Notes: generated from the letters alone by a model not told the origin. Shown: positions 9,139-42,139, counted from the stretch's first letter. The stretch: 42,489 nucleotides of DNA from Cytophagaceae bacterium (GCA_031285765.1 JAITVO010000348.1:1-42489); one strand, 5' to 3'. A program made the numbers and translations.

Positions 9139-11289
9139 ATGAAAACAAAGAAAAAGAAAAATAAAAAACCAAAAGGCAACCATACGACCGATATTAAAAT
9201 GATAATACAGGATGTGTTTTTCGACAAACCATCCAAGACCTATAATTACAAGCAAGTTGCGCAAATTTTGGGAAATAACCGAAAAAGCGCACAGCAAAAG
9301 GTGCAACTTGCGCTGATTGACCTTGCGGAAAGCGGATTCCTGACCGAAGTTACTACTGGCAGGTACAAACTTGTAGCAAGTGGCTCGTACGTTACGGGAA
9401 CGGTTGATATGACCTCTTCGGGTGCGGCTTACATTGTTCCCGAAGAGGGTGGCGAAGATATTTTTGTGTCGCAAACAAACCTGAAACACGCCCTCAACGG
9501 CGATGTGGTAAAAGTGTTACTGTATGCCAAAAACAGGAGCCGCCGCGCCGAAGGCGAAGTGGTTGAAGTTGTGAAATGCAAGCGCGAACTCTTTGTAGGT
9601 ACGCTGGATGTATCGGGCAATTGCGCCTTTTTGGTTACCGATTCAAAAGTTATTTATCGCAACATATACATTCCTCACGACAAAATTCATGGCGCAAATA
9701 ACGGACAAAAGGTAATTGTAAAAATTATAGAATGGTCAGATAAAGCTAAAAATCCCATAGGCGAAGTGGTTGATATACTGGGCAACCAGGGCGATAACAA
9801 TGCCGAAATGCACGCCATACTTGCCGAGTTTAATCTCCCCTACACCTATCCCGCCGAAATGGATGCCGAAGCCGAAAAAATACCCGAAACCATTCCAGAT
9901 GCTGAAATTATCAAGCGAAGAGATTTCCGAAACATCACTACGTTTACAATTGACCCTGCCGACGCAAAGGATTTTGACGACGCCCTCTCCATTCGCAAAC
10001 TCGACAGCGGACTGTGGGAAATTGGCGTTCACATTGCCGACGTAACGCATTACGTGCAGCCCGACACGCTTATCGACCGAGAAGGCTACGACCGCGCAAC
10101 CTCCGTTTATCTTGTTGATCGCGTGGTGCCGATGCTTCCCGAGCGGTTGAGCAACTACCTCTGTTCGCTGCGCCCCAACGAACAGAAACTCTGCTTCTCG
10201 GCGGTTTTTGAAATGAACAGCGACGCTACCGTCAAAAATCAGTGGTTTGGGCGTACCGTTATCAATTCTGACCGGCGTTTTTCGTACGAAGAAGCGCAAA
10301 CAATCATTGAAACTGGCACAGGCGATTTTGCCGATGAACTGAAAACCATGAACACACTTGCCAAAAAGCTGCGCCGGAAACGTATTAAAGCAGGCGCAGT
10401 TGAATTTGAACGTGTAGAGGTTCGTTTTGAAATAGACGAGACAGGAAAGCCATTGTCGGTTTTTTTTAAGGAATCGAAAGACTCAAACAAGTTGATTGAA
10501 GAATTTATGCTTTTGGCAAACAGAAAAGTAGCTGAACTGATTGGCAAAAAAACGCCACCCCAAACGTTTGTCTATCGTATTCACGACCACCCCAACCCCG
10601 AAAAGTTTGAAACATTCAGTAAATTTGTACGGAAATTTGGCTTAAAAGCCGAACCACAGGGCAAGGAGAGTATCAGCCAGTCGATCAATCGCCTGCTCAC
10701 AACCGTAAAGGGGCGAAAAGAGCAAAACATTGTTGAAACGCTCGCCATCCGTACAATGGCAAAAGCAGTGTACTCCACGCACAACGTGGGGCATTATGGA
10801 CTTGCATTCAAATACTACTCGCACTTTACGTCGCCTATCCGCCGCTATCCCGACATGATGGTACACCGCCTGCTTCAGCGCTACCTCGACGGCGGAAAAT
10901 CGGCTTCAGCCGAAAAGTATGAAGAGTGGTGCGAACACAGCTCCGAAATGGAACAGCGTGCCGCCGACGCCGAGCGTGCATCCATCAAATACAAGCAGGT
11001 AGAATTTTTGAAAGACCGTGTAGGACACAGTTTTGATGGTGTTATATCGGGCGTTACCGAATGGGGGCTGTACGTTGAACTCGACGAAAATAAGTGCGAA
11101 GGCATGATTCCGATTCGCGACCTCAACTACGATATTTATCAGTTCGACGAAGACAACTACATGCTGGTCGGTCGCCGCACCGGACAGGAATACCGGCTTG
11201 GCGACCCCATCAAAATAAAGATTGCCCGCGCCAACCTCGAAAAACGCCAGCTTGATTTTGTGGTAGATGACGACAGTTGGAGGATTTAA
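9139..11289 (+). CDS. rnr: Ribonuclease R
   Basis: RNB catalytic motifs (TIDPADAKDFDDALS, HYGLAFKYYSHFTSPIRRYPD), a C-terminal S1 domain and a Lys-rich N-terminus. The ATG at 9139 lies two codons inside the GTG ORF start. Confidence 0.92.
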   Translation: MKTKKKKNKKPKGNHTTDIKMIIQDVFFDKPSKTYNYKQVAQILGNNRKSAQQKVQLALIDLAESGFLTEVTTGRYKLVASGSYVTGTVDMTSSGAAYIVPEEGGEDIFVSQTNLKHALNGDVVKVLLYAKNRSRRAEGEVVEVVKCKRELFVGTLDVSGNCAFLVTDSKVIYRNIYIPHDKIHGANNGQKVIVKIIEWSDKAKNPIGEVVDILGNQGDNNAEMHAILAEFNLPYTYPAEMDAEAEKIPETIPDAEIIKRRDFRNITTFTIDPADAKDFDDALSIRKLDSGLWEIGVHIADVTHYVQPDTLIDREGYDRATSVYLVDRVVPMLPERLSNYLCSLRPNEQKLCFSAVFEMNSDATVKNQWFGRTVINSDRRFSYEEAQTIIETGTGDFADELKTMNTLAKKLRRKRIKAGAVEFERVEVRFEIDETGKPLSVFFKESKDSNKLIEEFMLLANRKVAELIGKKTPPQTFVYRIHDHPNPEKFETFSKFVRKFGLKAEPQGKESISQSINRLLTTVKGRKEQNIVETLAIRTMAKAVYSTHNVGHYGLAFKYYSHFTSPIRRYPDMMVHRLLQRYLDGGKSASAEKYEEWCEHSSEMEQRAADAERASIKYKQVEFLKDRVGHSFDGVISGVTEWGLYVELDENKCEGMIPIRDLNYDIYQFDEDNYMLVGRRTGQEYRLGDPIKIKIARANLEKRQLDFVVDDDSWRI

Positions 11290-11738: not shown

Positions 11739-13175
11739 ATGTTCAGATTACTAAAAATATCAATCTTATTTGCCCTGTTTCTGTGGTTAACTGGCTGCGA
11801 AAGGGACTATTCGTTTCGCGGTGGCGCTGATGGACTTAATTTTTCGACCGATACTGTAACTTTCGATACCGTTTTTACAACAATTGGCTCGGCAACTTAT
11901 CGGTTAATGGCATACAATCCGTATAATGACGACATGACCATTGATGCCATCCGCTTGGCGGGAGGCGAAAGTTCCAAGTTTCGCATCAATATCAACGGTT
12001 TTCCCGAAACATCGGTCAGGGAAATTCCCGTTATTGCCAACGACAGTTTGCTGATTCTGATAGAAGTAACCATCAATCCAGCCGATAATCACAACTCCTT
12101 TTTTGCCGATGACTCAATTCTGTTTTATACCAAAGAGCGTATTCAATCGGTGCGCTTGGAAGCATACGTGCAAGATGTTGTGGTGCTTCGGAGCCATACG
12201 TTTGCCAACGATACGGTATTGAAAAACGAGAAACCTTATTTGGTTTTCGATTATTTAGTTGTAGATTCCCTAAAAACATTGACGATTGACAAAGGCGTCC
12301 ACATTCATTTTTACGAAGGAGCTTCGATGCAGGTGTTCGGAACGCTGAAAGTGAATGGTACAAAGGATGAACCTGTTTTGTTTGCGGGGCATCGCCTCGA
12401 AAAGTTTTACAACGATAGAGCCGGACAGTGGGGCGGCATTCATCTTCGCCCCGGAAGCCGAGAGCACGCAATTGATTACGCCACAATTAGAAACAGTTAT
12501 TACGGGCTTAATATCGATTCGGTGGGTGTGAAAGACCAAACGCCTGTTGAGCTCCGGAATACGCAGATTAATTATATTACCAAACAGGGGTTGCTTGCGC
12601 AAACTGCTGCCATCAACGTCGAAAACTGCGTATTCGGCTATTGTGGAAGCTCGTCGGTTGCCCTGACGGTTGGCGGCAAGTACAATTTTTACCATTCTAC
12701 GATTGCCAATTACAATATGAATACAGGTGTGGCAAGGGATGGTTTTGATGCGCTGGTGGTATCGAATTATTATCCCGACAAAAATAACGAACCGGTTATC
12801 AGCGATCTCGATTTCTTTTTTTACAACTGCATTATTTCGGGCAACCGGAATGAAAACGACATCAGCATTGATATCAAAAAAACCGAACTGTGCAGCGTAA
12901 ACTGGCGCTTTAGCCATTCGCTTTTAAAAACGTCGGCTACCAATGATTCGCTGACTGGTAAACATTTTGACAATATTAAAATCGAAGAAAGCAAAGACAA
13001 TATTTTTATGGATGACGCCTCTGCCGATTTCAGGCTCGACACATTGTCGGTTGCAAAAGACATCGGTAATTTGAACATTGTTCTTGCCAACGAACGGTTG
13101 CTGAATGACATTGCCGGAAACTCCCGCACCAAAGACAATGCGCCCGACGCAGGGGCATACGAGAGGGGGGAATAA
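11739..13175 (+). CDS. Hypothetical lipoprotein, probably with a parallel beta-helix fold
   Basis: Signal plus lipobox LWLTGC. Repetitive beta-rich sequence. The C-terminal NAPDAGAYE motif is common in beta-helix surface proteins. Confidence 0.7.
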   Translation: MFRLLKISILFALFLWLTGCERDYSFRGGADGLNFSTDTVTFDTVFTTIGSATYRLMAYNPYNDDMTIDAIRLAGGESSKFRININGFPETSVREIPVIANDSLLILIEVTINPADNHNSFFADDSILFYTKERIQSVRLEAYVQDVVVLRSHTFANDTVLKNEKPYLVFDYLVVDSLKTLTIDKGVHIHFYEGASMQVFGTLKVNGTKDEPVLFAGHRLEKFYNDRAGQWGGIHLRPGSREHAIDYATIRNSYYGLNIDSVGVKDQTPVELRNTQINYITKQGLLAQTAAINVENCVFGYCGSSSVALTVGGKYNFYHSTIANYNMNTGVARDGFDALVVSNYYPDKNNEPVISDLDFFFYNCIISGNRNENDISIDIKKTELCSVNWRFSHSLLKTSATNDSLTGKHFDNIKIEESKDNIFMDDASADFRLDTLSVAKDIGNLNIVLANERLLNDIAGNSRTKDNAPDAGAYERGE

Positions 13176-16075: not shown

Positions 16076-16351
16076 TTGATAGAAATACAATCAGCGCCCT
16101 ACGTGGAAACTCTCAGACGTAAACGGAATTATCGTTATAAAGTGAATCGGAGTGTTGCTTTGGGAGTGTTAAAAGAGTATTCAGTACAACAGTTTTGGGG
16201 CAACGATAACAGAGAAATCTTGCGCGAGTTAGAACATCTGTTTGGAAATTATCTGGAACCTGTTCACCCTAATTGTAAATATCCGCGCAACTTCAAGCGA
16301 AGACCGCATTATAAACACTACAATACAACTATCTATAAACGTATTATGTAA
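16076..16351 (+). CDS. Orphan small basic ORF (91 aa, TTG start); coding status uncertain
   Basis: Non-repetitive Lys/Arg/Tyr-rich translation with no ATG and no family I recognise. Could be a gene relic. Confidence 0.25.
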   Translation: MIEIQSAPYVETLRRKRNYRYKVNRSVALGVLKEYSVQQFWGNDNREILRELEHLFGNYLEPVHPNCKYPRNFKRRPHYKHYNTTIYKRIM

Positions 16352-16668: not shown

Positions 16669-17781
16669 TTACGATGTCGCGTTATGGAATCGTTCGATTA
16701 AAAACGGCGCTATTTCAGTTAGCCCCATAACCTTTTCTGCGGCGCCAAGCTGAATCGCTTCTTTGGGCATTCCGAAAACTACCGACGATTGCTGGTCTTG
16801 CGCTATGGTAAAGGCTCCCGCTTCTTTCAGTTCAAGTAGTCCTTTAGCGCCATCGGTTCCCATGCCGGTGAGCAGAATGCCTGTTGTATTTTTTCCTGCG
16901 TAACGTGCTGCTGACCTGAAAAGCACATCCACCGCCGGGCGGTGTCTGTTTACAAGTGGTCCGTCTTTCACCTCTACCGAATATTCTTTGCCAACACGCT
17001 TGAGCAGCATGTGTTTGTTGCCGGGTGCTATTAACACTCTGCCCTGATAAAGCCTGTCGCCATCTTCGGCTTCTTTTATTTCCATAGCAGAAGTTTTATT
17101 TAATCCGTCGGCAAACGATTTGGTGAAACCTTCGGGCATGTGCTGAACAATGGCAATGCCGGGCATTCGTGCCGGAAGTTCTCTTAAAAGTGTACGGATG
17201 GCTTCGGTGCCTCCCGTTGAGGCGCCAAGTACAATTATTTTATCTGTATCAATGATGTGCGAACCCAGTGTACCTCTTTCGAGCATTACGTCAGCCGAGA
17301 ATTTGGGACGGACAGTGTATTCAGGCATCATGGGCTTTGTGGTAATGCGTTTCAGTTTTACCTGCGAAGCTGCTTTTACTGCATCACAGAGGATAATTTT
17401 CGATTCGTTGAAAAACTGTGGCGCGTTCATGGCTGGTTTGGCAATAATTTCCGAAGCGCCATACTGCAATGCTTTCATGGCTACTTCGGTGCCCTGTGCT
17501 GTCAGCGATGAAATAACAACTACAGGTATTGGATGCTGCGACATAATTTTCCGAAGAAATGTTAAGCCGTCCATTCGGGGCATTTCAATATCGAGTGTTA
17601 TAACGTCGGGAACCTCAACCTGAATTTTTTTTACGGCGATAAGCGGGTCGGCGGCTGTTCCTATGACCTCAATCTGCGGGTCGCTTTTCAATATCGTGCT
17701 CAGGCTTTGCCTTACAATTGCGGAGTCATCCACAATCAATACCTTTATCTTCTCATTCGTATCCATGTCTTCAGTTCTCAA
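16669..17781 (-). CDS. cheB: Chemotaxis response regulator protein-glutamate methylesterase
   Basis: N-terminal REC domain ([21 protein letters not shown]) plus a methylesterase domain ([24 protein letters not shown]). Confidence 0.93.
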
Positions 17782-17903
17782 ATTATATAATAATTACACG
17801 AAATTTGGCTTACTTCCTGTTTCTAAACCTTGTTGGGTTTGTTGCTTTGTTTGTGTAATTATTATTTGCAATTTATATAAGTATACAGTAATAATTAATT
17901 TTT

Positions 17904-17958
17904 ACGGATTGGCGATTGTTCAAAAAGTGTTTTTGAATGCGGATGACACTGATAGCAC
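17904..17958 (-). repeat. ATCCGCG/GTTCAAAAA-family repeat (inverted orientation) inside the cheD-cheB spacer
   Basis: The reverse complement reads atcagtgtcatccgcattcaaaaacactttttgaac, matching 8337-8377. Contains the hairpin ttcaaaaa/tttttgaa. Confidence 0.5.
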
Positions 17959-18060
17959 ATATTTTTGCAAATTTTATATGGATGATGACTCATATATAAA
18001 TTATACTTCTTTATGTTATTAGTGTGTGCGTCGTCCACCTTCTTTTTGAACAGCCTCGTA

Positions 18061-18534
18061 TTACCGTTCCGATCTGTTTAAAAATTTATGTCGTACTTCT
18101 CCTGTTCTCGAATCAAAAAGAATTTTACGTCCTTTTGTTCCTCCTGTGCTCGATGCTATTATCGGTATTTTGTATTCGGTCAGCATCATTTCAGCTACTC
18201 TTATGTTGCGTTCGCCAATGTGCATACTGCTTTTGTCGGGCGAAAGCAAATCGCCGCCTCCAAATACCTTTGCTGTCAAATTCTCTTTTTTACTGCCCAG
18301 CATCAACATCTTTTCAGTTAGTTTTTCTATTGCGACATTGCCATATTTGGGCGACAGCAAGTCGTTTCCGTTCCAGTTGGGAAGCATGTAATGATTCATA
18401 CCTCCTATTCTCAACACCGGATCGTAAAAACACACCGCTATACACGAGCCCAGAATCGTTTTAATTACATACGGCTCCTTGCTGGCGAATAATGTTGACG
18501 GGTATAAAAAATGTTGTAAAAAATTCTGGTCCAT
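18061..18534 (-). CDS. cheD: Chemoreceptor glutamine deamidase
   Basis: 157 aa with the LGSCIAVC catalytic-Cys motif and CheD-like sequence throughout. Confidence 0.9.
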   Translation of the reverse strand: MDQNFLQHFLYPSTLFASKEPYVIKTILGSCIAVCFYDPVLRIGGMNHYMLPNWNGNDLLSPKYGNVAIEKLTEKMLMLGSKKENLTAKVFGGGDLLSPDKSSMHIGERNIRVAEMMLTEYKIPIIASSTGGTKGRKILFDSRTGEVRHKFLNRSER

Positions 18535-18545
18535 TTTTGAATCCC

Positions 18546-19445
18546 TTAAAAAATCTCGTCATCACCATCAAAAAACAAATCGTTTCCGTCGCCGCTGAAA
18601 CTGTCAACAATGTTTCGTGATTCAGGAATTTTAATGGTAAATGTGGAGCCTTCGCCTTTAGTACTGTCAATTTCAATTGTTCCGTCGAGTACATCAAGCA
18701 GCGATTTGATAATGGAAAGCCCAAGCCCGTGTCCTCTGTTGATTGAATTGATGCCCGAATCCAAGCGTTTGAACCGTTCAAAAATAATCTGCTGATTTTT
18801 TTCAGAAATTCCTGTTCCAAAGTCCTGAACGCAAATAGACAGCACATCTTCGTCGTAGTTTACCTTAATAATAACTTTGCTGTCTTTATAGCTGTACTTC
18901 AAGGCATTGTTAAGGAGATTGCTAAGAATGAGTTTTAACTTTTCGCTGTCGGTTTTAAAATAGAAATTCTTTCCGAAACCGTATTCGATATTAAAGTGAA
19001 ATTCAACTTCTATTCCCATTTTACGCGCCACCAGATTGAACGAGTCGATAATGGACTGAATAAGCGATTTAACACTTACTTTGGCAATGTTTGGCATAAT
19101 TTCACCTGCTTCAATTTTAGCGGCAACAAAAATATTTCTCAACTGAAAGTCGAGATTAAATGCTTCGCTGTGTATCAGGGCTACCATGCTCACTACCTTT
19201 TTCCAGTCGTTTTTCTGTACCGAAAGTATCGATTTTGACAGTCCAAGTATGGATGTAAAGGGGTTTATTATTTCGTTTGAGATGTTCGAAATAAAGTGGC
19301 TTTTCATTGATTCCGACTCCTTAAAGCGCTGCGTTACAATCTGTAACTCACCGGAAAGCATTTTTACTTCGTTCTCTAATTTACTTCTCTCGTCAAGTTT
19401 AATTTTCAGTTCCTTCATCAACTGCTTATCCGAAATGTTTGCCAT
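18546..19445 (-). CDS. Soluble histidine-kinase-like protein (coiled coil + DHp-like + intact HATPase_c) with a degenerate H-box
   Basis: N box LSNLLNNALKYS, G1 VQDFGTGIS, F box IFERF and G2 GHGLGLSI are all present. The H-box reads FISNISNEIINPF, so Asn (AAC at 19275-19277) sits where the phospho-His is expected. No TM or sensor domain. Confidence 0.85.
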   Translation of the reverse strand: MANISDKQLMKELKIKLDERSKLENEVKMLSGELQIVTQRFKESESMKSHFISNISNEIINPFTSILGLSKSILSVQKNDWKKVVSMVALIHSEAFNLDFQLRNIFVAAKIEAGEIMPNIAKVSVKSLIQSIIDSFNLVARKMGIEVEFHFNIEYGFGKNFYFKTDSEKLKLILSNLLNNALKYSYKDSKVIIKVNYDEDVLSICVQDFGTGISEKNQQIIFERFKRLDSGINSINRGHGLGLSIIKSLLDVLDGTIEIDSTKGEGSTFTIKIPESRNIVDSFSGDGNDLFFDGDDEIF

Positions 19446-19458
19446 TTTAATTTGTTTT

Positions 19459-20331
19459 TTAATTGTTTTTTCTGAATATTGTTGGTTTAATATGTTCCAA
19501 TGGTAAGTTCATACCTGATATTGACTCGGAATGTCCGATAAAGAAATAGCCACCCGGTTTCAACTGGGTGCAAATTTGCCGAATAACTTTTTCCTGCGTT
19601 TCCCGGTCGAAATATATCAGCACGTTTCTGCAAAAGATAACATCAAATTCATTGGGAAACGAATAGTTATCCATCAAGTTCAGGTAACTTAACGTCAAAT
19701 TGGCTTGCAAGATACGATTTACTTTTATGGTTTGGTTGGCAGGATCTTTACTTTTCAGAAAATATTTTTTCTTCATTTCAAGCGGAACCCCATCAATTTT
19801 TGACGCAGCATAGATGCCTTTCACAGCAATATCAAGCATTTGCGACGAAATATCGGTTGCCGTAATATCGAACCTGAATGCTGGATTGTTTTTGTGAAAT
19901 TCATTTAAAACAATTGATATGGTATAAGGTTCTTCACCGCTCGAACATCCTGCGCTCCAAATTCTGAAAGTTTCGCCGGGCTTTTGTATTTTTTCGTCCG
20001 GTAAAACTGCATCATTCAAAAAGTTAAAATGAACAGGCTCTCTAAAAAAGTCGGTTTTGTTAGTGGTTACCACATTCAAAAATTGAAGGATCTCTTTGTC
20101 CTGCCCTTCTTTGCTGAAAAGATATTCTTTGTACTCGGTAAAGGAGGTCATTTTAAGTTCCCTTATTCTTTTCAGCAATCGTCCCTGCAACATCACCCGT
20201 TTAATGGGGGGCATCTTTATGCCGAACTGGGCATAAATAAACTTGCTGATATCCGCAAAATCTTTTTCAGAAAGCTGCGCTTTAAAACAATCGAAATCGG
20301 GATTGTTTTGTAATATGCTGTTACTATTCAT
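19459..20331 (-). CDS. cheR: Chemotaxis protein methyltransferase
   Basis: 290 aa with the CheR N-terminal helical domain and SAM-MTase motifs (RIWSAGCSSGEEPYT, FCRNVLIYF). Confidence 0.92.
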   Translation of the reverse strand: MNSNSILQNNPDFDCFKAQLSEKDFADISKFIYAQFGIKMPPIKRVMLQGRLLKRIRELKMTSFTEYKEYLFSKEGQDKEILQFLNVVTTNKTDFFREPVHFNFLNDAVLPDEKIQKPGETFRIWSAGCSSGEEPYTISIVLNEFHKNNPAFRFDITATDISSQMLDIAVKGIYAASKIDGVPLEMKKKYFLKSKDPANQTIKVNRILQANLTLSYLNLMDNYSFPNEFDVIFCRNVLIYFDRETQEKVIRQICTQLKPGGYFFIGHSESISGMNLPLEHIKPTIFRKNN

Positions 20332-20363
20332 TCGTTTTGCAAACTGTTAGACTCCTGTTTATT

Positions 20364-20897
20364 TCACAATTTTGCTTTCTTTTTCCCGCTCTGTTTTTCT
20401 TCAACACTTTTCTCTACAGGCGCATCTTCTACGGTATTCATCAGGGCAACTACCTCTTTCCTGTTGAAAATTACATCGGCATCCAATATATATATCAAAC
20501 GGCTTTCGTACATGTAGAAAGATGAAATGTACGTGGGTTTGTAATCCTCTACCGTAACGTTTTTCATATCCGAATTCTTTATTTCGAGAACATCAGAAAC
20601 GCTGTCGATGGAAATGCCGAGCTTGTAACTGTTTAGGTTTTGTTCGTCTTCCAGTTCAAGCACAATCACACACGTCGAGGGTGTAACATTTACCGGAGCC
20701 ATGCCAAACTTAACGCCTGTGTCAACTAAGGGAATAATTTCTTCTTGATACTCGGTAACACCCGCCACAAACGGATAGGTTTGCGGAATCGGTTTAGGAG
20801 GAGTGTATTCCCTTATTTCCCTTACCTTTGAAACATTAATTCCAAAGTTTTCTTCTCCTATTTTAAATACGAGATACGAATTTAATGTAGTATCCAT
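20364..20897 (-). CDS. cheW: CheW-like coupling protein with a Lys/Glu-rich C-terminal tail
   Basis: Single CheW domain (FKIGEENFGINVSKVREI ...). Confidence 0.88.
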   Translation of the reverse strand: MDTTLNSYLVFKIGEENFGINVSKVREIREYTPPKPIPQTYPFVAGVTEYQEEIIPLVDTGVKFGMAPVNVTPSTCVIVLELEDEQNLNSYKLGISIDSVSDVLEIKNSDMKNVTVEDYKPTYISSFYMYESRLIYILDADVIFNRKEVVALMNTVEDAPVEKSVEEKQSGKKKAKL

Positions 20898-20908
20898 ATA
20901 CTTAGCTG

Positions 20909-21361
20909 TTAGTTGTCAATAATTTGAGAAAGATGTTTTAAGTCGATGATATGAATAAAGGTATTCTTGTGAAGAATGGTTCCTTCATACGAATCAATCA
21001 TTCCCTTTTTGCTGTCCAATACAGTTTCTTTTAAGTCTTCGGGTTTAATTTCAATAACTTCGCTTATCATATCAACATAAATTCCGAATCTTATTTCCTG
21101 CGAATCGGAGGGATTGATAATAATAATTGAATGATTCTTTTCTTTTTCGCCGATTTCTTCTTCCATAATCAGGCGCATATCAACCACAGGAACAATGTTG
21201 CCGTGATGATTGATAACGCCAATCATATAGTCGGGTGTATTGGGCACTTTGGTAATAACATCGGGTACTTCGAGGATGTGTAGCACCTGCAAAGCGTCAA
21301 CCGCAAAAATGTTATCTTTCACAATGAACGATAATATCGTGTTTATTTGATTTGTTTCCAT
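20909..21361 (-). CDS. cheW: CheW-like coupling protein
   Basis: 150 aa, single CheW domain. Confidence 0.88.
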   Translation of the reverse strand: METNQINTILSFIVKDNIFAVDALQVLHILEVPDVITKVPNTPDYMIGVINHHGNIVPVVDMRLIMEEEIGEKEKNHSIIIINPSDSQEIRFGIYVDMISEVIEIKPEDLKETVLDSKKGMIDSYEGTILHKNTFIHIIDLKHLSQIIDN

Positions 21362-21373
21362 ATTCTTGCATTT

Positions 21374-23434
21374 TTAAACAACTGGATTTTTTATCATTTC
21401 ACGCGCAGTTTCTTTTTTAAAGCGGCGAGCATTTAATAGGCGCGACGTGTCAATAACCATCGAAATGGTTCCGTCGCCCATAATCGAAGCGCCCGAAACG
21501 TATCCCTGTTTTTCGAGGAATCTGCCGAGCGGTTTCACTACCGTTTGATATTCGCCTACAACCGAATCGGCTATGATGCCCAACTTTTTATCGTCGGTTC
21601 GTATCAAAATCATTTGCGAATACTCTTCGTCGGTTCTTTCGGCTTCTTTGAAAATGTCTCTTAAATCAATATATGGAATTTGCTCATTATTAATGGTTAC
21701 CACATAGTTGAACGAGGTGTCTTTCCTACCTTTCTCTGCCGAGAATATTGTTTCGATTGACGAAATTGGCAATACATAATGATTTGCTGCCACTTTTATT
21801 AGCAATCCGTCGATAATAGAGAGCGTAAACGGCAGGCGGATGGACATAATAGTTCCTTTTCCTTTTTCGGAGTCAATAGAAACATCACCTCTGATACCTG
21901 CTATTTTACGACGCACTACATCCATTCCAACTCCGCGTCCCGAAATATCGGAAACGGTTTCGCGAGTCGAAAAGCCGCTTGTAAAAAGAAGTTCAAAAAT
22001 CTCTTCTTTTGCGAGTTGAGTGTTCGGTTTAATAAATCCTTTTTTTACGGCTTTATTCATTATAATGTCAGGGTCGATTCCTCGTCCATCGTCTGATACT
22101 TCAATAATAACATTAGCGCCCGAATTATAGGCTTTAAAGAGTATTGTTCCTTTGGGTGACTTGCCGGCTGCAATCCGTTCTTCTTTTGATTCAATACCAT
22201 GATCAATACAGTTCCGCAGGATATGAAGCAACGGGTCGGTCAGGTTTTCGATAATGGTTTTGTCCAATTCAATATCGCTTCCTTCAATGATGAAGTCAAT
22301 GTCTTTGTTTTGTTCTTTCGACAAATCGCGCACCAATCGTTGGAAGCGCATCAATTCGCTTTGAAGTGGAATAAGGCTGATGTCAAAAGCATTATCTCTT
22401 AACTGCCGCGACAGTTTCTGTATATTTTCCGCAATAGCGGCAATTGTTGTATCGTTGTTGTTCTCGGCAAAAAGCGAAAGTTGCGATTGTGTAATCACTA
22501 ATTCACTCACAAGTGTAACCAGTTCATCAACTTTGTGCGACGATACTCTGATACTTGATATTTTATGTTCCTTTGCCACCGCCGCTTTCTTTTTCTCTGC
22601 AGCTTCTTCAGGTGTTTCTACGCAATTTTTCACTTCGTTCAGCGTAAGCAGCGTGTTGGTAGTCGAAGCCTTATCAAGCAGTTCTTTCAGTTTTGGGCTG
22701 TTGATAATTGATGCGTCAGCCACCTGATCAATATGCAGTTCGCACTCGCCATCCACAAATATGAAAACTTCCTTAATCTCGTTAATCGACTGTGCTGTAC
22801 TCAAAATAATTTGCCAAAATGTATAACAAGTGTCGGGTTTCAAATTGTCGATATCAGGAATTTTCGACGTAAACGCAACAGTTACGGCTTTTCCCAGCGC
22901 ATGAACATCGTCGAGTAATAAAAACGGATTTGTTCCATTATCCAACAGTTCAGCCTGTGGAATAAAAGTTATCAAATAACTTTTTTCACCTTCTGGATTG
23001 ACCAACTCTTCATTTTTCGTTTGGATGTTTGTTTTCTTTTCGGAGGCGTTTCCTTTGAGAAATGACTCGAATCCGGCAATAGCTGAGTTAAAATCCGACA
23101 ATTCGTTTTTCGACAAATTATCGCCAAACTTCAACAAGTGCATTATCCTGTCAATAGCCGAAAATGTCAGTGTTATCAATTCACTGTTTACATTGATTTT
23201 TTTATTTCTGACATTGTCATAAATAGTTTCGAGGTGGTGTGTAAACTCACTGAGGCGGTTGAATCCGAACATAGCTCCCCCACCTTTTATAGAATGCATT
23301 GCCCGAAAAATCCGTTCAATAAGTTCCTGATTTTCCATATCGTTCTCCAGAAGCAGCAGCGCTTCTTCGAGGTCGCGTATGTTATCCATAGACTCTTCGA
23401 CAAATTTTGCCTTAAATTGATCTATTTTGTCCAT
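21374..23434 (-). CDS. cheA: Chemotaxis histidine kinase CheA (P1 Hpt, linker/P2-like, P3, P4, P5; no C-terminal REC)
   Basis: Hpt motif AMHSIKGG, P3 IRVSSHKVDELV, P4 HILRNCIDHGIE / DDGRGID / GRGVGMDVV, and a P5 CheW-like end. Confidence 0.95.
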   Translation of the reverse strand: MDKIDQFKAKFVEESMDNIRDLEEALLLLENDMENQELIERIFRAMHSIKGGGAMFGFNRLSEFTHHLETIYDNVRNKKINVNSELITLTFSAIDRIMHLLKFGDNLSKNELSDFNSAIAGFESFLKGNASEKKTNIQTKNEELVNPEGEKSYLITFIPQAELLDNGTNPFLLLDDVHALGKAVTVAFTSKIPDIDNLKPDTCYTFWQIILSTAQSINEIKEVFIFVDGECELHIDQVADASIINSPKLKELLDKASTTNTLLTLNEVKNCVETPEEAAEKKKAAVAKEHKISSIRVSSHKVDELVTLVSELVITQSQLSLFAENNNDTTIAAIAENIQKLSRQLRDNAFDISLIPLQSELMRFQRLVRDLSKEQNKDIDFIIEGSDIELDKTIIENLTDPLLHILRNCIDHGIESKEERIAAGKSPKGTILFKAYNSGANVIIEVSDDGRGIDPDIIMNKAVKKGFIKPNTQLAKEEIFELLFTSGFSTRETVSDISGRGVGMDVVRRKIAGIRGDVSIDSEKGKGTIMSIRLPFTLSIIDGLLIKVAANHYVLPISSIETIFSAEKGRKDTSFNYVVTINNEQIPYIDLRDIFKEAERTDEEYSQMILIRTDDKKLGIIADSVVGEYQTVVKPLGRFLEKQGYVSGASIMGDGTISMVIDTSRLLNARRFKKETAREMIKNPVV

Positions 23435-23525
23435 TGAAAAATACTTTATATGTTAAAATAACTGCACAACTTTTCTCTGCTGAACACTTGTCAAAGTCGG
23501 AAACAATCCAACAAATGAATTTGTT

Positions 23526-23533
23526 CAAATATA
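23526..23533 (-). promoter_or_regulatory. Possible internal -7 box TAtaTTTG in the cheY-cheA spacer
   Basis: Exact TAnnTTTG on the minus strand, 92 nt upstream of the cheA ATG, inside the 129-nt gap. Confidence 0.3.
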
Positions 23534-23563
23534 TAAGTGTTAAGCCTTGTGTTTAGCTTATTC

Positions 23564-23929
23564 TTATCGAATAACTCTTGAAATAGCTGAAAGAAGTTTG
23601 GCTGGAACAAATGGCTTTATAATCCATCCCGTAGCGCCCGCTTCTTTGGCTTCCATTTTCTTTTCTGCCTGCGACTCTGTAGTTAAAAATAAAATTGGCG
23701 TATGTTTGTACTGTTCCATTTCGCGAATTTTTCTAATCAACCCCAATCCATCAAGGTTAGGCATGTGTAAATCGGTAATTACGATGTCGATATGGCGACC
23801 GTCGAGAAATTTCAACGCATCTTCACCATCAATACCAACAAGAACCTCGTATCCTTCGTTTTGAAGCGTAAAACTCACTACTTCGCGGATACTTTCAGAA
23901 TCGTCAACGATTAATACTGTTTTTGCCAT
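23564..23929 (-). CDS. cheY: CheY-like single-domain response regulator
   Basis: 121 aa with DD (VDDSE), phospho-Asp (ITDLHMP), T (LFLTTES) and K (IIKPF) all conserved. Confidence 0.92.
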   Translation of the reverse strand: MAKTVLIVDDSESIREVVSFTLQNEGYEVLVGIDGEDALKFLDGRHIDIVITDLHMPNLDGLGLIRKIREMEQYKHTPILFLTTESQAEKKMEAKEAGATGWIIKPFVPAKLLSAISRVIR

Positions 23930-23952
23930 AATAATACTGCTTTATTTTTGTT

Positions 23953-24267
23953 TTAATTGTTTTTGCAAATTATACCGGAAAAACCGGCATTGGTTAATAA
24001 CGATTTTAAATCGTCGGGGACCGAAATCGAAATACTGACATCGAATCCTTCCTTTTGACCGCTTAATTTTAAAGCATAAAGCAACTGAACAAAAGTTACA
24101 TCAATATTCTCAACATTTTCAGTTGAAATGTCGATGCTTTTATGCTTTTTGCGATTTGCATTCAACTCTTCGGTAATTTTCTCAATATTACTGATGGTTA
24201 ATTGCCCACCAAAGACAACGTTCAAGTTACCTTTTTTATTGCTGTATTTTACACTGTAGTTTCTCAT
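23953..24267 (-). CDS. STAS-domain protein (anti-sigma-factor-antagonist-like)
   Basis: 104 aa with a SpoIIAA/RsbV-like layout (L.G.L....I.....L...........ID...V..ID.....L). First gene of the chemosensory operon. Confidence 0.7.
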   Translation of the reverse strand: MRNYSVKYSNKKGNLNVVFGGQLTISNIEKITEELNANRKKHKSIDISTENVENIDVTFVQLLYALKLSGQKEGFDVSISISVPDDLKSLLTNAGFSGIICKNN

Positions 24268-24415
24268 CTTGTAAATAAAATATTTGTTTTAAACTCAATA
24301 CTGTACATGTTTTTAAATCTTTATATCTGCGTAAACAGACTAAAAATCAATGAAAAACACTATTTCACTAACAATTTACCGACCTTTATACTTTGATTAC
24401 CCTAAAAGGGTTTCA

Positions 24416-24443
24416 ATATTTATCGAATGATTTCGATAAATAT
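24416..24443. promoter_or_regulatory. Perfect 12-4-12 palindrome (atatttatcgaa tgat ttcgataaatat); candidate operator upstream of the che operon
   Basis: The arms are exact reverse complements. Centred ~163 bp upstream of the STAS ATG (24267), within the 472-bp intergenic region. Confidence 0.4.
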
Positions 24444-24691
24444 ATCATATTATTTCCGCATACACATATTTATAGCTGATATTATGCACTTTACAAACTA
24501 AAAAAATCATGATTCTGCTGTTTGGGCTAGATTATTTTGTGAGAGTGGAATTATTTTAGTTTATAATCGATTCATTGTTTCCTAATATTTTTCATTCCAT
24601 TTGTCGGGCAACTGTGTAATAGCGCACTTTCGATTTCCAGAAGCAATTTCTGAAAAAGAATTTGTTGCCGCAACATCCTCATGTATGCAAA

Positions 24692-24730
24692 TAAAAAATC
24701 AAAGCCTCACATTGTTCATGCAAGGCTTTG
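24692..24730 (-). terminator. Rho-independent terminator after tRNA-Lys
   Basis: 8-bp stem caaagcct/aggctttg with a 15-nt loop, followed on the minus strand by ATTTTTTAT. Confidence 0.55.
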
Positions 24731-24739
24731 GCTTTCAAG

Positions 24740-24812
24740 TGACCCCGGAGAGGCTCGAACTCTCGACCCATTGATTAAGAGTCAATTGCTCTACCAACTG
24801 AGCTACGGAGTC
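24740..24812 (-). tRNA. tRNA-Lys (anticodon CUU)
   Basis: I folded a full 73-nt cloverleaf by hand: acceptor GACTCCG/CGGGGTC, D arm GCTC-AGTTGGTA-GAGC, anticodon arm ATTGA-CTCTTAA-TCAAT, T arm GAGAG-TTCGAGC-CTCTC, discriminator A. CCA is not encoded. Confidence 0.93.
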
Positions 24813-37347: not shown

Positions 37348-38271
37348 TTAAAAGAATCTTGGGCTTGTGGTGTTCACACGGTAGCCGAAATCGAACTGTA
37401 ACGATATTTCGTGGCTGCCTGCGTTAAACTTCCGCAATTCGCCTGTCGGAAAGTCGTAACTGTAGGTTGCACGCATACGCGGCGTGATTTGCCAGCCCAG
37501 TACGGCTACAAATTCGTTGTTGGTACGGTAAGTACCGCCCACCCACACCAAATCGAGGATGATAGCCGACAGCGAAATATCGGCAAGTGTACGCACCTGC
37601 GGTCCAAACTTCAATAATGCCGAAGGCTGAAGCCGAAGCGAATTGCTAACATCAAAAAGGTAGCCAGCAGTAAGGTTCATCGACGAGCGACCGAATGAAA
37701 AGAACGATGCTTCGTAATCGAACGGCGTGCGGTAAAAGAAATCGTAAACCGAGAAGCCTGCAAAGAACCGCTCACCATACCATGCAGTTCCGAAACCCAG
37801 AACCGGACGATTGTCTGATTCAATATCCCGCAACTGCTCAAATGCCTCGTCGGGATTCTCAATGTCGATTAATTCGATGTCCATGTTACCGTAGTTTGCC
37901 GACGAAAACCCGCCGTTTAAGCTGAATGCAAGTTTGCTTCTGCCCAAAAACAGACGGTAGGTATATGATAGAGTTGCACGGAAGTTGGCGTAAACGGCAA
38001 ACTTCTCGTTGTAAATAAATCCGCCCAGCGCAACATGTTCGCTTTTAAGCGGCGCATGAATGGTAACATTTTGCGACGACGGCGGATTGGGTGTGTCCCA
38101 CCACTGCTGCCTGAACGAGCCGAAAATCGACAGCGCCTCGCGCGACCCTGCAAACGCAGGATTAATCATATACTGATTGTGCACATAATGCGACGTCATT
38201 AGCATCCGCTCTTGCGAGAAGAGCGATAAAGGAAGCATAAATAAAATAAATAAAAAAGCATACCTCACCAC
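37348..38271 (-). CDS. Type IX secretion system membrane protein, PorP/SprF family
   Basis: Family start ...QYMINPAFAGSREALSIFGSFRQQWW.. and beta-barrel-like sequence to the C-terminal RFF. Probable GTG start at 38271/38268. The 144 upstream codons of the long ORF run through repeat elements. Confidence 0.8.
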   Translation of the reverse strand: MVRYAFLFILFMLPLSLFSQERMLMTSHYVHNQYMINPAFAGSREALSIFGSFRQQWWDTPNPPSSQNVTIHAPLKSEHVALGGFIYNEKFAVYANFRATLSYTYRLFLGRSKLAFSLNGGFSSANYGNMDIELIDIENPDEAFEQLRDIESDNRPVLGFGTAWYGERFFAGFSVYDFFYRTPFDYEASFFSFGRSSMNLTAGYLFDVSNSLRLQPSALLKFGPQVRTLADISLSAIILDLVWVGGTYRTNNEFVAVLGWQITPRMRATYSYDFPTGELRKFNAGSHEISLQFDFGYRVNTTSPRFF

Positions 38272-38585
38272 TATTCCCTCTCCAAAGGAGAGGGGGATAG
38301 CAAGGCGTTTAACTGTTTTTTTTAAGTAATTGTGCGCTTTGAAAAGCGTCCGGATGTATGGCTCAATGCAATATTCGCCTGTGTTTTGCGTAACACTACT
38401 CCCTCTTTTTTGGATAGGGGATAGGGGAGAGGCTTTAAAAGATTTCTTTGTTTTCATATCAGTAAAATTATGGAAAAGAAGAAGTTTCTCACCAAAGAAT
38501 GGGGTGAGTACAGCACAATGCAATGTTCGCTTGCATTGTGCGTAACACTTCCTCCTCTCATTTTGGAGAGGGGATAGGGAAGAGG
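38271..38585 (+). repeat. Repeat cluster in the cargo-PorP spacer: three CCTCT...GGAGAGGGGATAGG hairpin units, two of them inside a ~69-bp direct repeat (38364-38432 and 38516-38585)
   Basis: Hairpin units at 38271-38305, 38399-38432 and 38551-38585. The shared prefix caatgcaatRttcgcYtg...tgcgtaacact precedes the last two. Confidence 0.65.
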
Positions 38586-38594
38586 TGTGCTTTT

Positions 38595-40895
38595 TCATCG
38601 TTTTATAATCAAATATTTTTTTACGGTACTTGCTCCTTTGCCCGAAAAGACATAAGAATAGATGCCTTCGGGCACAGGCTTGCCGTTGCGGGCGCCATCC
38701 CAAAAGGGTGTTCCTGTCGGGTGCCCGTAATCGGTTGCGGTGTAAACCACCTGTCCGTCTTTATCGAATATTACCAGTCGGTTGCCGTTTACCTGATGTG
38801 CACCCACAATTTCGAACAGATCGTTAACGCCGTCGCCATTGGGCGAAAAGCCTGTTGGACAGCGCAACCCATAAAGTGTTATCATTACCTCGTCGTAACT
38901 CATACATTCGCCGTTGCGAACCGTCCAGCCCAGCACTGTTTCGCCGATTGGAAAGCCGTTTGCCGCTGTTTGCGGAAATTTTGCATTAAAGAAAGCGATG
39001 CCGGCGTTTGAGTTCCATTCGCCCTCGCCCACAGTGGGTGTGCGGGCATTTAATGTTGTATTGCTCGAATAGATAATGGTATCGTTGCCTGCAAACGCAA
39101 TGGGTATTTCGTAAAATGTAACGTCCACTTCATCGGTTGTTTGGCATTCTTTGCCGTCCACAACCACAGTCCACGTGAGCGTACAGGTTTCGCGGTTGTT
39201 TACATCATCCATCGTAAAAATAGAATTGGCGGCGTGCACATTGGTAAACGTTCCGCCGGCATTGGCGCCGGCATCTTTCAGTTGCCACGTACCGGTAGCA
39301 CCTGCGCGGGGAGGCTCGGCGTTGAGCGTAATCTGGTTGCCGCACAGCTCAGCGTCGTCGCCTGCAAAAGCGATGGGAATTTCGTAAAACGTAACATTTA
39401 CCTCGTCCGCTGTTTCGCAGCCAACATTGTCCACCGCCACACTCCACGTCAGGGTGTATGTTTTATGGTCATTAACATTATTAATTACAAGATTGGAATT
39501 GGGGGCGTGCGGATTCGAAAATTCGCCTTCGCCGGTATCCTCCTCTTTCAGCAGCCACGTGCCTGTAACGCCTGCGCGGGGAGGCTCGGCGTTGAGCGTA
39601 ATTTGAGTTCCGCACGCTTCGGCGTCGCTGCCCGCAACCGCAATGGGAATTTGATGAAATGTTACGTTTACCTCGTCCGCTGTTTCGCATGCTTTGCCGT
39701 CCACAGCCACAGTCCATGTAAGTTTGTATGTTTTGTGGTCGATTACATCATTAATCACAAAGCCCGAATTGGCGGCATGTACATCTGTAAACGCACCCTC
39801 GCCGGTATCCTCATCGTGCAGCTGCCACGTGCCGGTGTTTCCCTCGAGGGCAGGCGCAGCATTGAGCGCAGTTTCAGTGCCGCACACATCCGTATCGTCG
39901 CCCGCAAACGCCACAGGTTTAATATCGGGAACGGTAATGGTATCGCCCATTCCGTCGGGAGTGGCAATGCAGTTAAGGTTGTCAGTAATTTGTGTTATCC
40001 AAAAATCGGTTTCTCCCTTAACGGGATGGTTCACTATTTTCATGTTCGGCAGTGTTTCGGTAAACGCTTCACTTCCGTTGGTATAGTTTACACTGAAAGG
40101 GGTATTTCCGCCAACAATAAAGGTGATTGCGGCATCGCCTTCGCCGCACACTTCGGAGCTGGTACTGATGTAACCTTTGGGCGAGCCCAGCAGTTTTACA
40201 TTTATGGATGTATCGGCGATGCACTCGTCAACGGCTTGCGTCGAAATGCCGTTGGCTTGCGTAAAAATAACCGTGTAGCCTTCGTTGGGTTCACCCGCAA
40301 AGAGCGTGGTTGAAGCGTTGTGAGGCGTAAACGTTCCATTGCCGCCCGTTGCTACCCGCCATCTGAATACGCTTTCGGTTTCGTCGAGGTCGGGATTCGC
40401 TTTCAGCGTAATGGTATCGCCGCATCCCTCAATCGAAGCATAGTCAAACGTCGGTTTAAGAGGGGTATTGTGAACATGTACGATAATTGCCTCGTCGGGA
40501 TTACCGGGTATCCAGTCGGAAACCCCGTCCCGGAACCATAAAATGGTTAATTTCAGTTTATGGATATTACGATTTTCGAGGAGGAATGGATTGAAACCAA
40601 TTCTCCTGATACATACAGGCTCGCTTACCGACGACGACCAACCCTCTACCGAAAGGTTATCGCTGTAAGGATGAACAGCCATCCCTGTTTCAGCGTCTTC
40701 GAGCCTTATCCGTGCATCGAACGGCTCATCTCCTGTAAAATCAATTTGAAACTCTATATCAAATACATGATTAACAATTGGCTTGGTCAAGCACTGTGTA
40801 CGCTCGTAAACTACCAGCGAGGCTGTAGGCTGTGCCACACCCGCCGCACAAAAGAGCAGCGACGGTATAATAATGAAAGCAATATATTTTTTCAT
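38595..40895 (-). CDS. T9SS type-B C-terminal sorting domain cell-surface protein with four ~90-aa tandem Ig-like repeats
   Basis: The C-terminus CPTGFSPNGDGVNDLFEI...GIYSYVF....KKYLIIKR is the gliding-motility-associated (type B) CTD. Signal peptide MKKYIAFIIIPSLLFCAAGVAQ starts at the ATG at 40895. Confidence 0.88.
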   Translation of the reverse strand: MKKYIAFIIIPSLLFCAAGVAQPTASLVVYERTQCLTKPIVNHVFDIEFQIDFTGDEPFDARIRLEDAETGMAVHPYSDNLSVEGWSSSVSEPVCIRRIGFNPFLLENRNIHKLKLTILWFRDGVSDWIPGNPDEAIIVHVHNTPLKPTFDYASIEGCGDTITLKANPDLDETESVFRWRVATGGNGTFTPHNASTTLFAGEPNEGYTVIFTQANGISTQAVDECIADTSINVKLLGSPKGYISTSSEVCGEGDAAITFIVGGNTPFSVNYTNGSEAFTETLPNMKIVNHPVKGETDFWITQITDNLNCIATPDGMGDTITVPDIKPVAFAGDDTDVCGTETALNAAPALEGNTGTWQLHDEDTGEGAFTDVHAANSGFVINDVIDHKTYKLTWTVAVDGKACETADEVNVTFHQIPIAVAGSDAEACGTQITLNAEPPRAGVTGTWLLKEEDTGEGEFSNPHAPNSNLVINNVNDHKTYTLTWSVAVDNVGCETADEVNVTFYEIPIAFAGDDAELCGNQITLNAEPPRAGATGTWQLKDAGANAGGTFTNVHAANSIFTMDDVNNRETCTLTWTVVVDGKECQTTDEVDVTFYEIPIAFAGNDTIIYSSNTTLNARTPTVGEGEWNSNAGIAFFNAKFPQTAANGFPIGETVLGWTVRNGECMSYDEVMITLYGLRCPTGFSPNGDGVNDLFEIVGAHQVNGNRLVIFDKDGQVVYTATDYGHPTGTPFWDGARNGKPVPEGIYSYVFSGKGASTVKKYLIIKR
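38868..39941 (-). repeat. Intragenic tandem repeats, ~270 bp x 4 (three well conserved, one diverged)
   Basis: Protein repeats of the form VNVTF.EIPIA.AG.DAE.CG.QITLNAEPPRAG.TGTW.L......G.F.N.HA.NS......V......T.TW.V.VD...C.T.DE. Confidence 0.85.
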
Positions 40896-40896
40896 G

Positions 40897-41140: not shown

Positions 41141-41178
41141 AGAACACGGATAACGCAGATTTTCGCAGATATTTTACC
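41141..41178 (-). repeat. ATCCGCG-family repeat (inverted orientation)
   Basis: The reverse complement ggtaaaatatctgcgaaaatctgcgttatccgtgttct parallels 37083-37123. Confidence 0.45.
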
Positions 41179-42108: not shown

Positions 42109-42131
42109 TTTTTTCGACTGCACAACGGAGG

Positions 42132-42139
42132 CAAAAGTA
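42132..42139 (-). promoter_or_regulatory. -7 box TActTTTG upstream of the repeat ORF
   Basis: Exact TAnnTTTG on the minus strand. Confidence 0.4.

Follow-up and report, generated by a model that had tools for sequence, protein, structure and literature searches.

A reduced accessory chemosensory operon without a linked receptor in a gliding Bacteroidota host, and the His-to-Asn pseudo-kinase that it encodes

Why should an operon encode a complete chemosensory core, together with the three enzymes that methylate, demethylate and deamidate receptors, and have no receptor gene beside it? This question is raised by a stretch of 42,489 nucleotides from a Cytophagaceae bacterium (GCA_031285765.1, JAITVO010000348.1:1-42489), which was analysed as a whole and is called here the window. 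On its minus strand, between positions 16,669 and 24,267, nine genes encode, in this order, a STAS-domain protein, the response regulator CheY, the histidine kinase CheA, two CheW coupling proteins, the methyltransferase CheR, a soluble pseudo-histidine kinase that we call HK*, the receptor deamidase CheD and the methylesterase CheB. The original prediction, made from the sequence alone, took this arrangement for a receptor-less system with an empty receptor slot between cheW and cheR. Our analysis leads to a different answer: the locus is a lineage-specific reduced variant of a known accessory chemosensory cluster, similar to the F7 stage-1 and F8 systems and widespread in Marinilabiliaceae and related Bacteroidales, and its novel element is HK*, more so than the missing receptor.

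That no receptor gene accompanies the operon was borne out. Pfam searches, covering essentially all of the window's open reading frames (ORFs) of at least 100 aa, found in none of them the signalling domain of an MCP (methyl-accepting chemotaxis protein). The window, translated in six frames, also gave no match to a hidden Markov model (HMM) made from 75 cluster-linked MCPs (best E = 2.2). No MCP gene lies within 16 kb to either side of the window's cluster, and none was seen in up to 9.2 kb upstream in five further MCP-less loci. A receptor hidden in a 478-aa ORF, or in the N-terminus of a 740-aa TPR protein, was considered and rejected, since neither gives a Pfam or NCBIfam signal; furthermore, outside the che cluster the window has no ORF with an aromatic-x-x-aromatic tail.

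The relatives of the operon, by contrast, do have a receptor. A scan of one genome per GTDB species returned at least 496 confirmed relatives of HK*, a number that contradicts, for this group, the earlier view of Che pathways as rare in the phylum, and gene order was taken from the best 80. In all of the 74 loci with at least 2.5 kb of upstream coverage, an MCP gene stands directly before the STAS gene, with its end at a distance of less than 1.5 kb from cheY on the upstream side. The MCP linked to the cluster carries a transmembrane segment at its N-terminus and also a HAMP domain; in 75 of the 75 full-length proteins from the longer form of the cluster, its C-terminus reads ...EFDLDNYEKF or a close variant; such NYEKF-like ends are x-Y-x-x-F tails of the kind that tethers CheR and CheB. 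Alignment of one member, that of locus L002, to E. coli Tsr, from the second transmembrane segment to the end of the signalling domain and with two symmetric 7-residue gaps, indicates that the long-form MCP is of the 34H type. The gene before this MCP is usually one for DUF4154 (at 2139-2654 in L002), which we take to be the YfiR family and which suggests a periplasmic partner of the MCP sensor domain. Since an MCP lies beside STAS in every one of these 74 loci and carries a tail of the tethering type, the system, taken as a kind, clearly depends on a receptor and possesses one dedicated to it. Receptor-less is, therefore, not a description of the system type, and an MCP clearly dedicated to this CheA class, which the original prediction had itself named as a finding that would remove the unusual aspect, is what the relatives carry.

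The complete cluster, or long form, is a supercluster conserved across Marinilabiliaceae and related Bacteroidales. Its 5' part encodes DUF4154, MCP, STAS, CheY, Hpt, CheA, CheW, CheW, CheR, HK*, CheD and CheB, and its 3' module encodes GAF/PAS, CheR, CheR, CheB, a protein of about 260 aa (x259), GAF/PAS-PP2C, DUF6272 and SiaC. Three long-form gene tables place the small Hpt gene between cheY and cheA, the module from GAF/PAS to the GAF/PAS-PP2C phosphatase follows cheB in 67 of the related loci mapped, and DUF6272 and SiaC come after the PP2C gene in all three whole long-form gene tables. The CheB of this module has no receiver domain, the protein of about 260 aa belongs to no family and the PP2C phosphatase is SpoIIE-type; judged from its gene content, the module, which is found at 12559-20900 in L002 and likewise in L003, L004 and about 65 more loci, has the look of a methylation unit joined to a SiaABC-like partner switch. 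Over 82 related loci, the two best-conserved proteins of the cluster are CheY (median identity 91%) and HK* (76%), well ahead of CheA (57%) and the CheWs (40-45%); STAS is the least conserved (median 36% to the long forms). Close homologues of HK*, taken as the best 120 of hundreds, are 298-321 aa long, nearly all exactly 299, and 73-86% identical, and come from Geofilum, Alkalitalea, Natronoflexus, Alkaliflexus, Carboxylicivirga, Marinilabilia, Thermophagus and Breznakibacter. A typical Bacteroidales long form, with an HK* 67% identical, was also met in a record labelled 'Eggerthellaceae bacterium' (Actinomycetota; L083, CAVGTO010000003.1, and L085); the L083 contig is probably mis-binned or mislabelled.

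To which of the described chemosensory classes does the cluster belong? [quoted passage not shown] The order STAS-cheY-cheA-cheW-cheW is the same in the window, so that the F7-type resemblance noticed in the original prediction holds by gene order. The aer2-like MCP of stage-1 F7, between cheW and cheR, has no counterpart in the window, where a gap of 32 nt is found at this point, and the contiguous cheR-cheD-cheB genes with their 3' MCP, STAS and phosphatase are not found either, as HK* is inserted and nothing comes after cheB. In P. syringae, F8 is marked by an in-cluster 34H receptor with a C-terminal pentapeptide (PMC11253619); such a receptor is lacking in the window and present in the relatives. 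Gene order points to F7 and the receptor type of the relatives to F8, and these two features are the basis on which the cluster is described here as F7/F8-like. In the literature searched, no functional study was found of this system in Bacteroidota or of the HK* gene, and in this respect the claim that it is uncharacterised stands; the genes themselves, however, are not new to classification, since an HK gene and a STAS gene are listed, in a figure legend, as gene-order elements of F7/F8/F9/F14 clusters (Mo et al. 2022, PMC9239204).

The pathway encoded in the window appears complete apart from its receptor. All of the nine minus-strand ORFs are intact, co-directional and assigned by Pfam to the families named, and the gene content and tight packing described in the original prediction were confirmed, with intergenic gaps from cheA to cheD of 12, 11, 32, 13 and 11 nt, 129 nt between cheY and cheA and about 294 nt between cheD and cheB. 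An identical 8.3-kb contig is present in a public assembly of run SRR14710890, and therefore the sequence is no assembly oddity. The STAS-domain protein, first in the operon (23953..24267, 104 aa), matches Pfam PF01740 STAS at 23.2 bits, barely over the cut-off, and STAS_2 at 26.4 bits; its canonical phospho-Ser slot after Asp56 is Val/Leu/Ile, and Thr58, Phe59 and Gln61 are each at least 90% conserved in 71 loci. CheY (23564..23929, 121 aa; Response_reg 1.4e-28) is a single-domain response regulator whose pocket, formed by Asp9/10, Asp53, Thr83/84 and Lys104, is invariant. CheA (21374..23434, 686 aa) has P1, P3, P4 and P5 domains (Pfam Hpt, H-kinase_dim, HATPase_c and CheW), with P1 reading FRAMHSIKGG and His47 in HSIKGG; the NCBIfam CheA models match it over its full length, yet score under their equivalog cut-offs. 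The two CheW proteins (20909..21361, 150 aa, 3.7e-24; 20364..20897, 177 aa, 1.8e-28) are followed by CheR (19459..20331, 290 aa; CheR 1.2e-61 and CheR_N) and, beyond HK*, by CheD (18061..18534, 157 aa; 7e-28) and CheB, which has a receiver domain (16669..17766, 365 aa when read from the ATG at 17766, in an ORF extending to 17781; CheB_methylest 6e-66 and Response_reg) and whose 365-aa product is also called on the identical public contig. Residue inspection found the S-adenosylmethionine-binding motifs of CheR intact, the catalytic Cys31 and His48 of CheD, and Asp59, Ser183, His209 and Asp305 of CheB. Of the features that define a Che pathway, the CheA domains with the P1 histidine, two CheWs, an intact CheY pocket and catalytic CheR, CheB and CheD are present, and a methyl-accepting receptor is the one that the window lacks.

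The reduced layout is not peculiar to the window. The short form lacks the MCP, DUF4154 and Hpt genes and, where covered (the window and L006), the downstream module, and it occurs in at least seven genomic contexts, the window and at least six others (the loci being, besides the window, L005/L096/L088, L006/L097, L087, L089, L099 and the fragments L101 and L102; metagenomic contigs, with related short forms present in ERZ27257304, ERZ27257348, Ga0123353, Ga0123354 and Ga0099364); it is in none of the genomes among the 80 best of the at least 496 scan matches. In a tree of CheA, CheW1, CheW2, CheR, HK* and CheD, the three short forms that possess the whole set of six (the window, L005 and L006) group together as a single clade inside Marinilabiliaceae, sister to the metagenome-assembled genomes (MAGs) L007, L008 and L011. 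The RNase R of the window has close relatives that are all uncultured (72-78%), and its best match in NCBI genomes (71%) is in GCA_037439945.1, the MAG of L008. RNase R and the che genes point, thus, to the same MAG, which indicates vertical descent; paralogy or horizontal transfer of the short cluster is disfavoured, as the two phylogenies share their nearest public genome, and from these comparisons the preferred reading is that the short form is a vertically inherited orthologue, neither a transferred nor a duplicated extra copy. Genes for SpoIIE-type PP2C proteins were observed within about 1.5-2 kb upstream of STAS in two short-form loci (L087 752-3430, minus strand; L099 2015-3256, plus strand), and this neighbourhood could reflect chance or a residual partner-switch link.

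How well the reduced operon is preserved bears directly on the question of the receptor. Within the short clade, synonymous divergence is saturated (pS 0.7-0.87), and nonsynonymous divergence (pN) is 0.04-0.06 for CheY, 0.09-0.10 for HK*, 0.11-0.13 for CheD, 0.12-0.15 for CheR and 0.11-0.19 for the CheWs (0.15-0.19 for CheW2). Of the alignment columns with a conservation of 95% or more in the long forms, the short forms retain 85-97% (CheW1 17/18, CheW2 20/22, CheR 104/116, CheD 63/74, CheB 188/196). Taken together, the intact residues, low pN and kept columns are those of coupling and adaptation proteins that are maintained in the short form by strong purifying selection. Because the CheW, CheR, CheD and CheB genes are under such selection, the likeliest explanation of the missing linked receptor is a receptor gene elsewhere in the genome, and 'receptor-less' most likely means just that the receptor is unlinked to the operon; its absence from 42 kb tells little about the genome as a whole. 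MCP genes are often unlinked to che operons, and we know of no non-MCP substrate for CheR, CheB or CheD. The explanation that we consider the best, and that we hold as a whole with somewhat more belief than doubt (the trimming, the receptor in trans and the role of HK* discussed below all included), is that the locus is a trimmed orthologue of the Marinilabiliaceae chemosensory supercluster, whose uncultured lineage would have kept only the STAS-to-CheB core together.

The most unusual product of the operon is HK* (18546..19445, 299 aa), which is built of a coiled coil, a DHp and a CA domain, followed by an acidic C-terminal tail, ...GNDLFFDGDDEIF, and has neither a sensor nor a transmembrane domain. 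It matches HATPase_c (1.8e-25) and, below the cut-off, HisKA (18.5 bits), and its whole length can be aligned with HK853 (2c2a; E 2e-27), whose His260 stands opposite Asn57 (ISHELRTP vs ISNEIINP). HK* is unable to autophosphorylate at the canonical site, since Asn57 replaces the histidine; the original prediction had rightly described the gene as sensor-less and HK-like, but the missing phospho-accepting residue had been overlooked. A HMMER search of 1.84 billion representatives, from which the best 150 matches were taken, gave 146 one-domain relatives (about 212-305 aa, mostly 290-305; 36-53% identity) and, with the query, a family of 147. Asn57 is found in 144 of these, Glu58 in 137 and Asn61 in 144, which makes an ExxN motif; the ATP-binding residues N176, N180, D208, G210, G212, G238, G240 and G242 are kept in between 130 and all 147 of the sequences, and the CA domain has the conserved N, G1, F and G2 boxes. 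DHp residues 44-115 of HK* are almost invariant. A phospho-site moved to His50 (position -7) was rejected as a general mechanism, this residue being invariant in Marinilabiliaceae and present in just 70 of the 147 family-wide, and HK* is also unlikely as a methylation substrate, as its helices hold no methylation-site-like EE, EQ or QE pair.

The AlphaFold2 model of HK* gives a standard DHp and CA fold and a tail (279-299) with a predicted local distance difference test (pLDDT) score of about 33; because of this low score over its last 21 residues, the tail is modelled as disordered. In 132 near-full-length representatives, the last 20 residues hold on average 5.9 acidic and 0.4 basic residues, Phe closes the tail in 104 and Glu stands at -3 in 81 (E-h-F), and position -4 is Glu, Gly or Asp family-wide. 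As for its position, HK* is always directly before cheD, also in all of the four distant loci examined, which include one from a Magnetococcales MAG and no fewer than two from Bacteroidota. Of these, L105 (a distant Bacteroidota) has the order Y-A-W-MCP-R-HK*-D-B, with an MCP of the 4HB/HAMP transmembrane type, ending in EYEKF, in the cheW|cheR slot; L106 (5070-11486) has STAS-CheY-CheA-CheR-CheB-HK*-CheD, the last as an 86-aa fragment; and in L107 an extra single-domain receiver gene (9631-10008) shares 8 nt with the start of HK*, an overlap suggestive of translational coupling between the two. Upstream of STAS, two of these loci encode helical proteins with no significant Pfam match (L105 3309-4073, 254 aa, x254; L107 3589-5337, 582 aa, x582), which share QxHDxIRQKxxHI, with the DxxxQ spacing of the CheZ active site, and YTMQSxRD, and have acidic ends ...(I/V)ELF. 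These proteins are candidate remote CheZ-like phosphatases, and their ends fit the view of E-h-F tails as putative docking peptides for receiver domains.

With standard Che biochemistry as the guide for a core whose residues were checked in the sequence, the following working can be proposed. A receptor, most probably an MCP of the 34H type that ends in an xYxxF tail and has its gene elsewhere in the genome, would control CheA through the two CheWs; CheA would autophosphorylate on His47 and pass the phosphate to Asp53 of CheY and Asp59 of CheB, and CheR, CheB and CheD would methylate, demethylate and deamidate the receptor. The tail of HK* would tether a receiver domain, that of CheY or CheB, and the DHp domain would dephosphorylate or read out CheY~P, so that HK* would do the work of CheZ, CheX or CheC, which are lacking both in the window and in the six gene tables of related loci. 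The signal would leave the system, probably via CheY~P, HK* and STAS, towards a partner switch or another target. It is not a flagellar output: CheY is 91% identical across genera and the layout is conserved in non-flagellated gliding Bacteroidales, and therefore the target is not a flagellar motor.

That HK* is a kinase-dead phosphatase or reader for phosphorylated receivers (CheY~P and CheB~P) is held tentatively, with somewhat less than half of the weight that we roughly share out among the options for this protein. E/DxxT/N is the phosphatase motif of HisKA kinases and ExxN the active-site motif of CheC and CheX, the H139N mutant of NtrB is the classic kinase-negative, phosphatase-positive form, and CheZ tethers CheY by an acidic C-terminal peptide ending in Phe. 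No Pfam match to the CheZ/CheC/CheX-type families (PF04344, PF04509, PF13690) was found in HK* or in any window ORF. Several observations weigh against the proposal as a whole. The evidence for the phosphatase role consists of motifs and gene neighbourhood; a dedicated phosphatase has no obvious need for fully conserved ATP-binding motifs, even if nucleotides are cofactors for some HK phosphatase activities; and the HK* tail, DDEIF, with Phe at -1 and Asp at -4, is not a canonical CheR/CheB-binding pentapeptide (x-aromatic-x-x-aromatic). As regards the receptor, none was found in the 42-kb window and its presence in trans is what we infer; L106 is without cheW and without an MCP within 10 kb, which makes it a second, independent MCP-less arrangement. 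Further erosion does occur, since L006 has also lost cheB, its cluster ending at the cheD-cheB junction, and layout and receptor type point to different classes, F7 and F8.

Could the ATP site of HK* serve, instead, to phosphorylate the STAS protein, so that HK*, STAS and PP2C would form a partner switch that is the output and CheY~P would regulate HK*? This would account for ATP-binding motifs strictly kept though the histidine is gone, and HK* does match HATPase_c_2, the RsbW/SpoIIAB type, with 31.5 bits over a cut-off of 27.4, beneath its 90-bit HATPase_c match. The cluster always opens with STAS, GAF/PAS-PP2C, DUF6272 and SiaC close the long forms, and SpoIIE-type phosphatase genes lie just upstream in L087 and L099; stage-1 F7 has STAS genes and a serine phosphatase as well (PMC7184735), and a link between Che1 of Shewanella and RpoS partner switching is reported (PMC9855816). 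Against it, where the phosphorylated Ser should be there is Val/Leu/Ile, with only Thr58, two residues on, conserved, and conservation is lowest for STAS and among the highest for HK*, which is unusual for a tight kinase-substrate pair. HK* has, moreover, a DHp domain, which the STAS kinases known to us lack, and its invariant ExxN-Pro remnant of the H-box would be left unexplained; we regard this reading as a minor, if serious, possibility. The sequence matches of HK* in the PDB include DivL, with Tyr for His, and RetS, which offer precedents for a non-catalytic adaptor that would pass the signal of CheY~P or of another kinase by contact, as the almost invariant DHp surface and the 91% conservation of CheY would allow; the strictness with which the whole family has kept ExxN and the Asn and Gly residues that bind Mg/ATP suggests chemistry beyond binding and makes a purely non-catalytic role doubtful.

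The remaining alternatives concern the operon rather than HK*. A truly receptor-less pathway, in which CheA, CheW and HK* would signal without an MCP, CheR, CheB and CheD would act on a non-MCP substrate or partner or as regulators, and the output would be gliding, the type IX secretion system (T9SS) or a STAS partner switch, is in keeping with the lack of an MCP around the window's cluster and upstream of the five further loci, and with the recurrence of the short form and its conservation within the clade. A change of partner would also fit the long stem branch of CheW1, CheW2 and STAS, which are 45%, 40% and 36% identical to the long forms vs 73-78%, 68-76% and 55-59% within the short clade. 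We consider it improbable, nevertheless, since the ancestral system is clearly MCP-dependent, MCP genes commonly lie apart from che operons, nearly all of the conserved CheW columns (17/18 and 20/22) and about 90% of those of CheR, CheD and CheB are kept with no non-MCP substrate known to us, and the helices of HK* offer no methylation-like pair. Decay after loss of the receptor would explain why the MCP, Hpt and downstream module are gone, why L006 is also without cheB and why the cheD-cheB spacer is widened; nine intact ORFs with their catalytic residues, and strong purifying selection across the clade members compared, make a decaying remnant very improbable. The trimmed orthologue with a receptor in trans is, thus, the reading that we retain.

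Nothing unusual marks the surroundings of the operon. Upstream there is an ECF sigma factor gene and then tRNA-Lys(CTT) (24739-24812, minus strand; ARAGORN; Rfam tRNA 70.5 bits, the sole match in an Rfam scan of the window) with a strong terminator-like hairpin at 24730-24700; the two (24700..24812) form the upstream boundary of the operon and are followed by a non-coding leader (24268..24699) before STAS. The tRNA and leader occupy the position in which relatives hold the DUF4154 and MCP genes. A genomic island at tRNA-Lys was rejected, as there is no direct repeat of the tRNA 3' end beyond the cluster and no integrase. Lenient tblastn and family HMM searches of the window found no pseudogene remnants of MCP, DUF4154, Hpt, GAF/PAS, PP2C or DUF6272 and matched only the window's own CheA P1, CheR and CheB, by cross-matching. 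The AT-rich cheD-cheB spacer (17767..18060, minus strand), a possible site of an internal promoter, is only 35-50 nt long in the gene tables of three long forms. Read on the minus strand, the 15-mer TAAAATTTGCAAAAA (repeat D17) occurs at 17962-17976 and 23960-23974, with 14/15 bases alike, some 200 and 30 nt upstream of cheB and cheY, respectively; because it carries TAnnTTTG, a motif of the Bacteroidetes -7 promoter type, the two copies may mark internal promoters.

Downstream of the operon there is a convergent TPR protein gene and, farther out, the genes for GldD, PorP/SprF and a CHU_C cargo with a type-B C-terminal domain, and Pfam scans of the ORFs found no flagellar genes in the window; on GldD, PorP/SprF, the type-B cargo and the missing flagellar genes the earlier description was accurate. 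The PorP/SprF gene lies directly downstream of the CHU_C cargo gene and overlaps it as called (37348-38703 and 38595-40922, minus strand), and a gene for a PQLLE-family protein (41174-41830) adjoins this usual pair. Three ORFs have no Pfam or NCBIfam match, at 11739-13175 (plus strand, 478 aa, 3.5 kb from cheB), 16076-16351 (plus strand, 91 aa) and 41893-42282 (minus strand, 129 aa), and none of them is MCP-like.

The interest of the locus goes beyond its annotation. The function of F7 stage-1/F8-type accessory systems is open even in Vibrio, Pseudomonas and Shewanella, and the same layout is now seen in gliding Bacteroidales. HK* offers a concrete candidate for the missing CheY~P phosphatase, or for the read-out, of these systems, and the sub-lineage without a linked MCP amounts to an experiment of nature on what the supercluster can and cannot do without. 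The main questions that it raises are the output of a highly conserved non-flagellar pathway and the role of a family of His-to-Asn pseudo-kinases.

Several known systems resemble the locus in part. The nearest by layout is stage-1 F7, as in cluster III of V. cholerae and in M. alcaliphilum (PMC7184735), which has the same STAS-cheY-cheA-cheW-cheW-cheR-cheD-cheB order, no cheZ and an output that is non-flagellar or unknown; at its far end it carries a serine phosphatase and STAS-type partner-switch genes, as the long forms do, although these have no second MCP. Unlike stage-1 F7, the window has no aer2-like soluble MCP between cheW and cheR and holds HK* between cheR and cheD, the receptor of Marinilabiliaceae is transmembrane, of the 34H type and placed before STAS, when it is not absent as in the window, and the host is a non-flagellated gliding Bacteroidota rather than a gamma-proteobacterium. 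Cluster II of P. syringae pv. tomato, an F8 system, has, like the relatives of our locus, a single in-cluster 34H receptor with a pentapeptide, together with CheR; STAS and HK*, present here, are not mentioned in the accessible text on that cluster (PMC11253619), and the window is without the receptor.

HK*, for its part, shares with the bifunctional HisKA kinases HK853, EnvZ and NtrB, in their phosphatase mode, an ExxN/T motif beside the active site and intact ATP boxes, but its family has Asn in place of His, no sensor or transmembrane part, an acidic tail and a place in a che operon beside cheD. With CheZ and with CheC, CheX and FliY it would share its proposed role, and it has the ExxN of CheC/CheX, the acidic, Phe-ended tail of CheZ and, like cheC, a gene that adjoins cheD; unlike them, it has no homology to these proteins in sequence or fold, and the likeness is one of motif, tail and neighbourhood. 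Finally, DivL and RetS have also kept the HK fold while canonical autophosphorylation was lost or became dispensable, and act via contacts with response regulators or kinases; they differ in having sensor domains, in belonging to other pathways and in lacking any che linkage, whereas HK* sits within a che operon and retains all of its ATP-binding residues.

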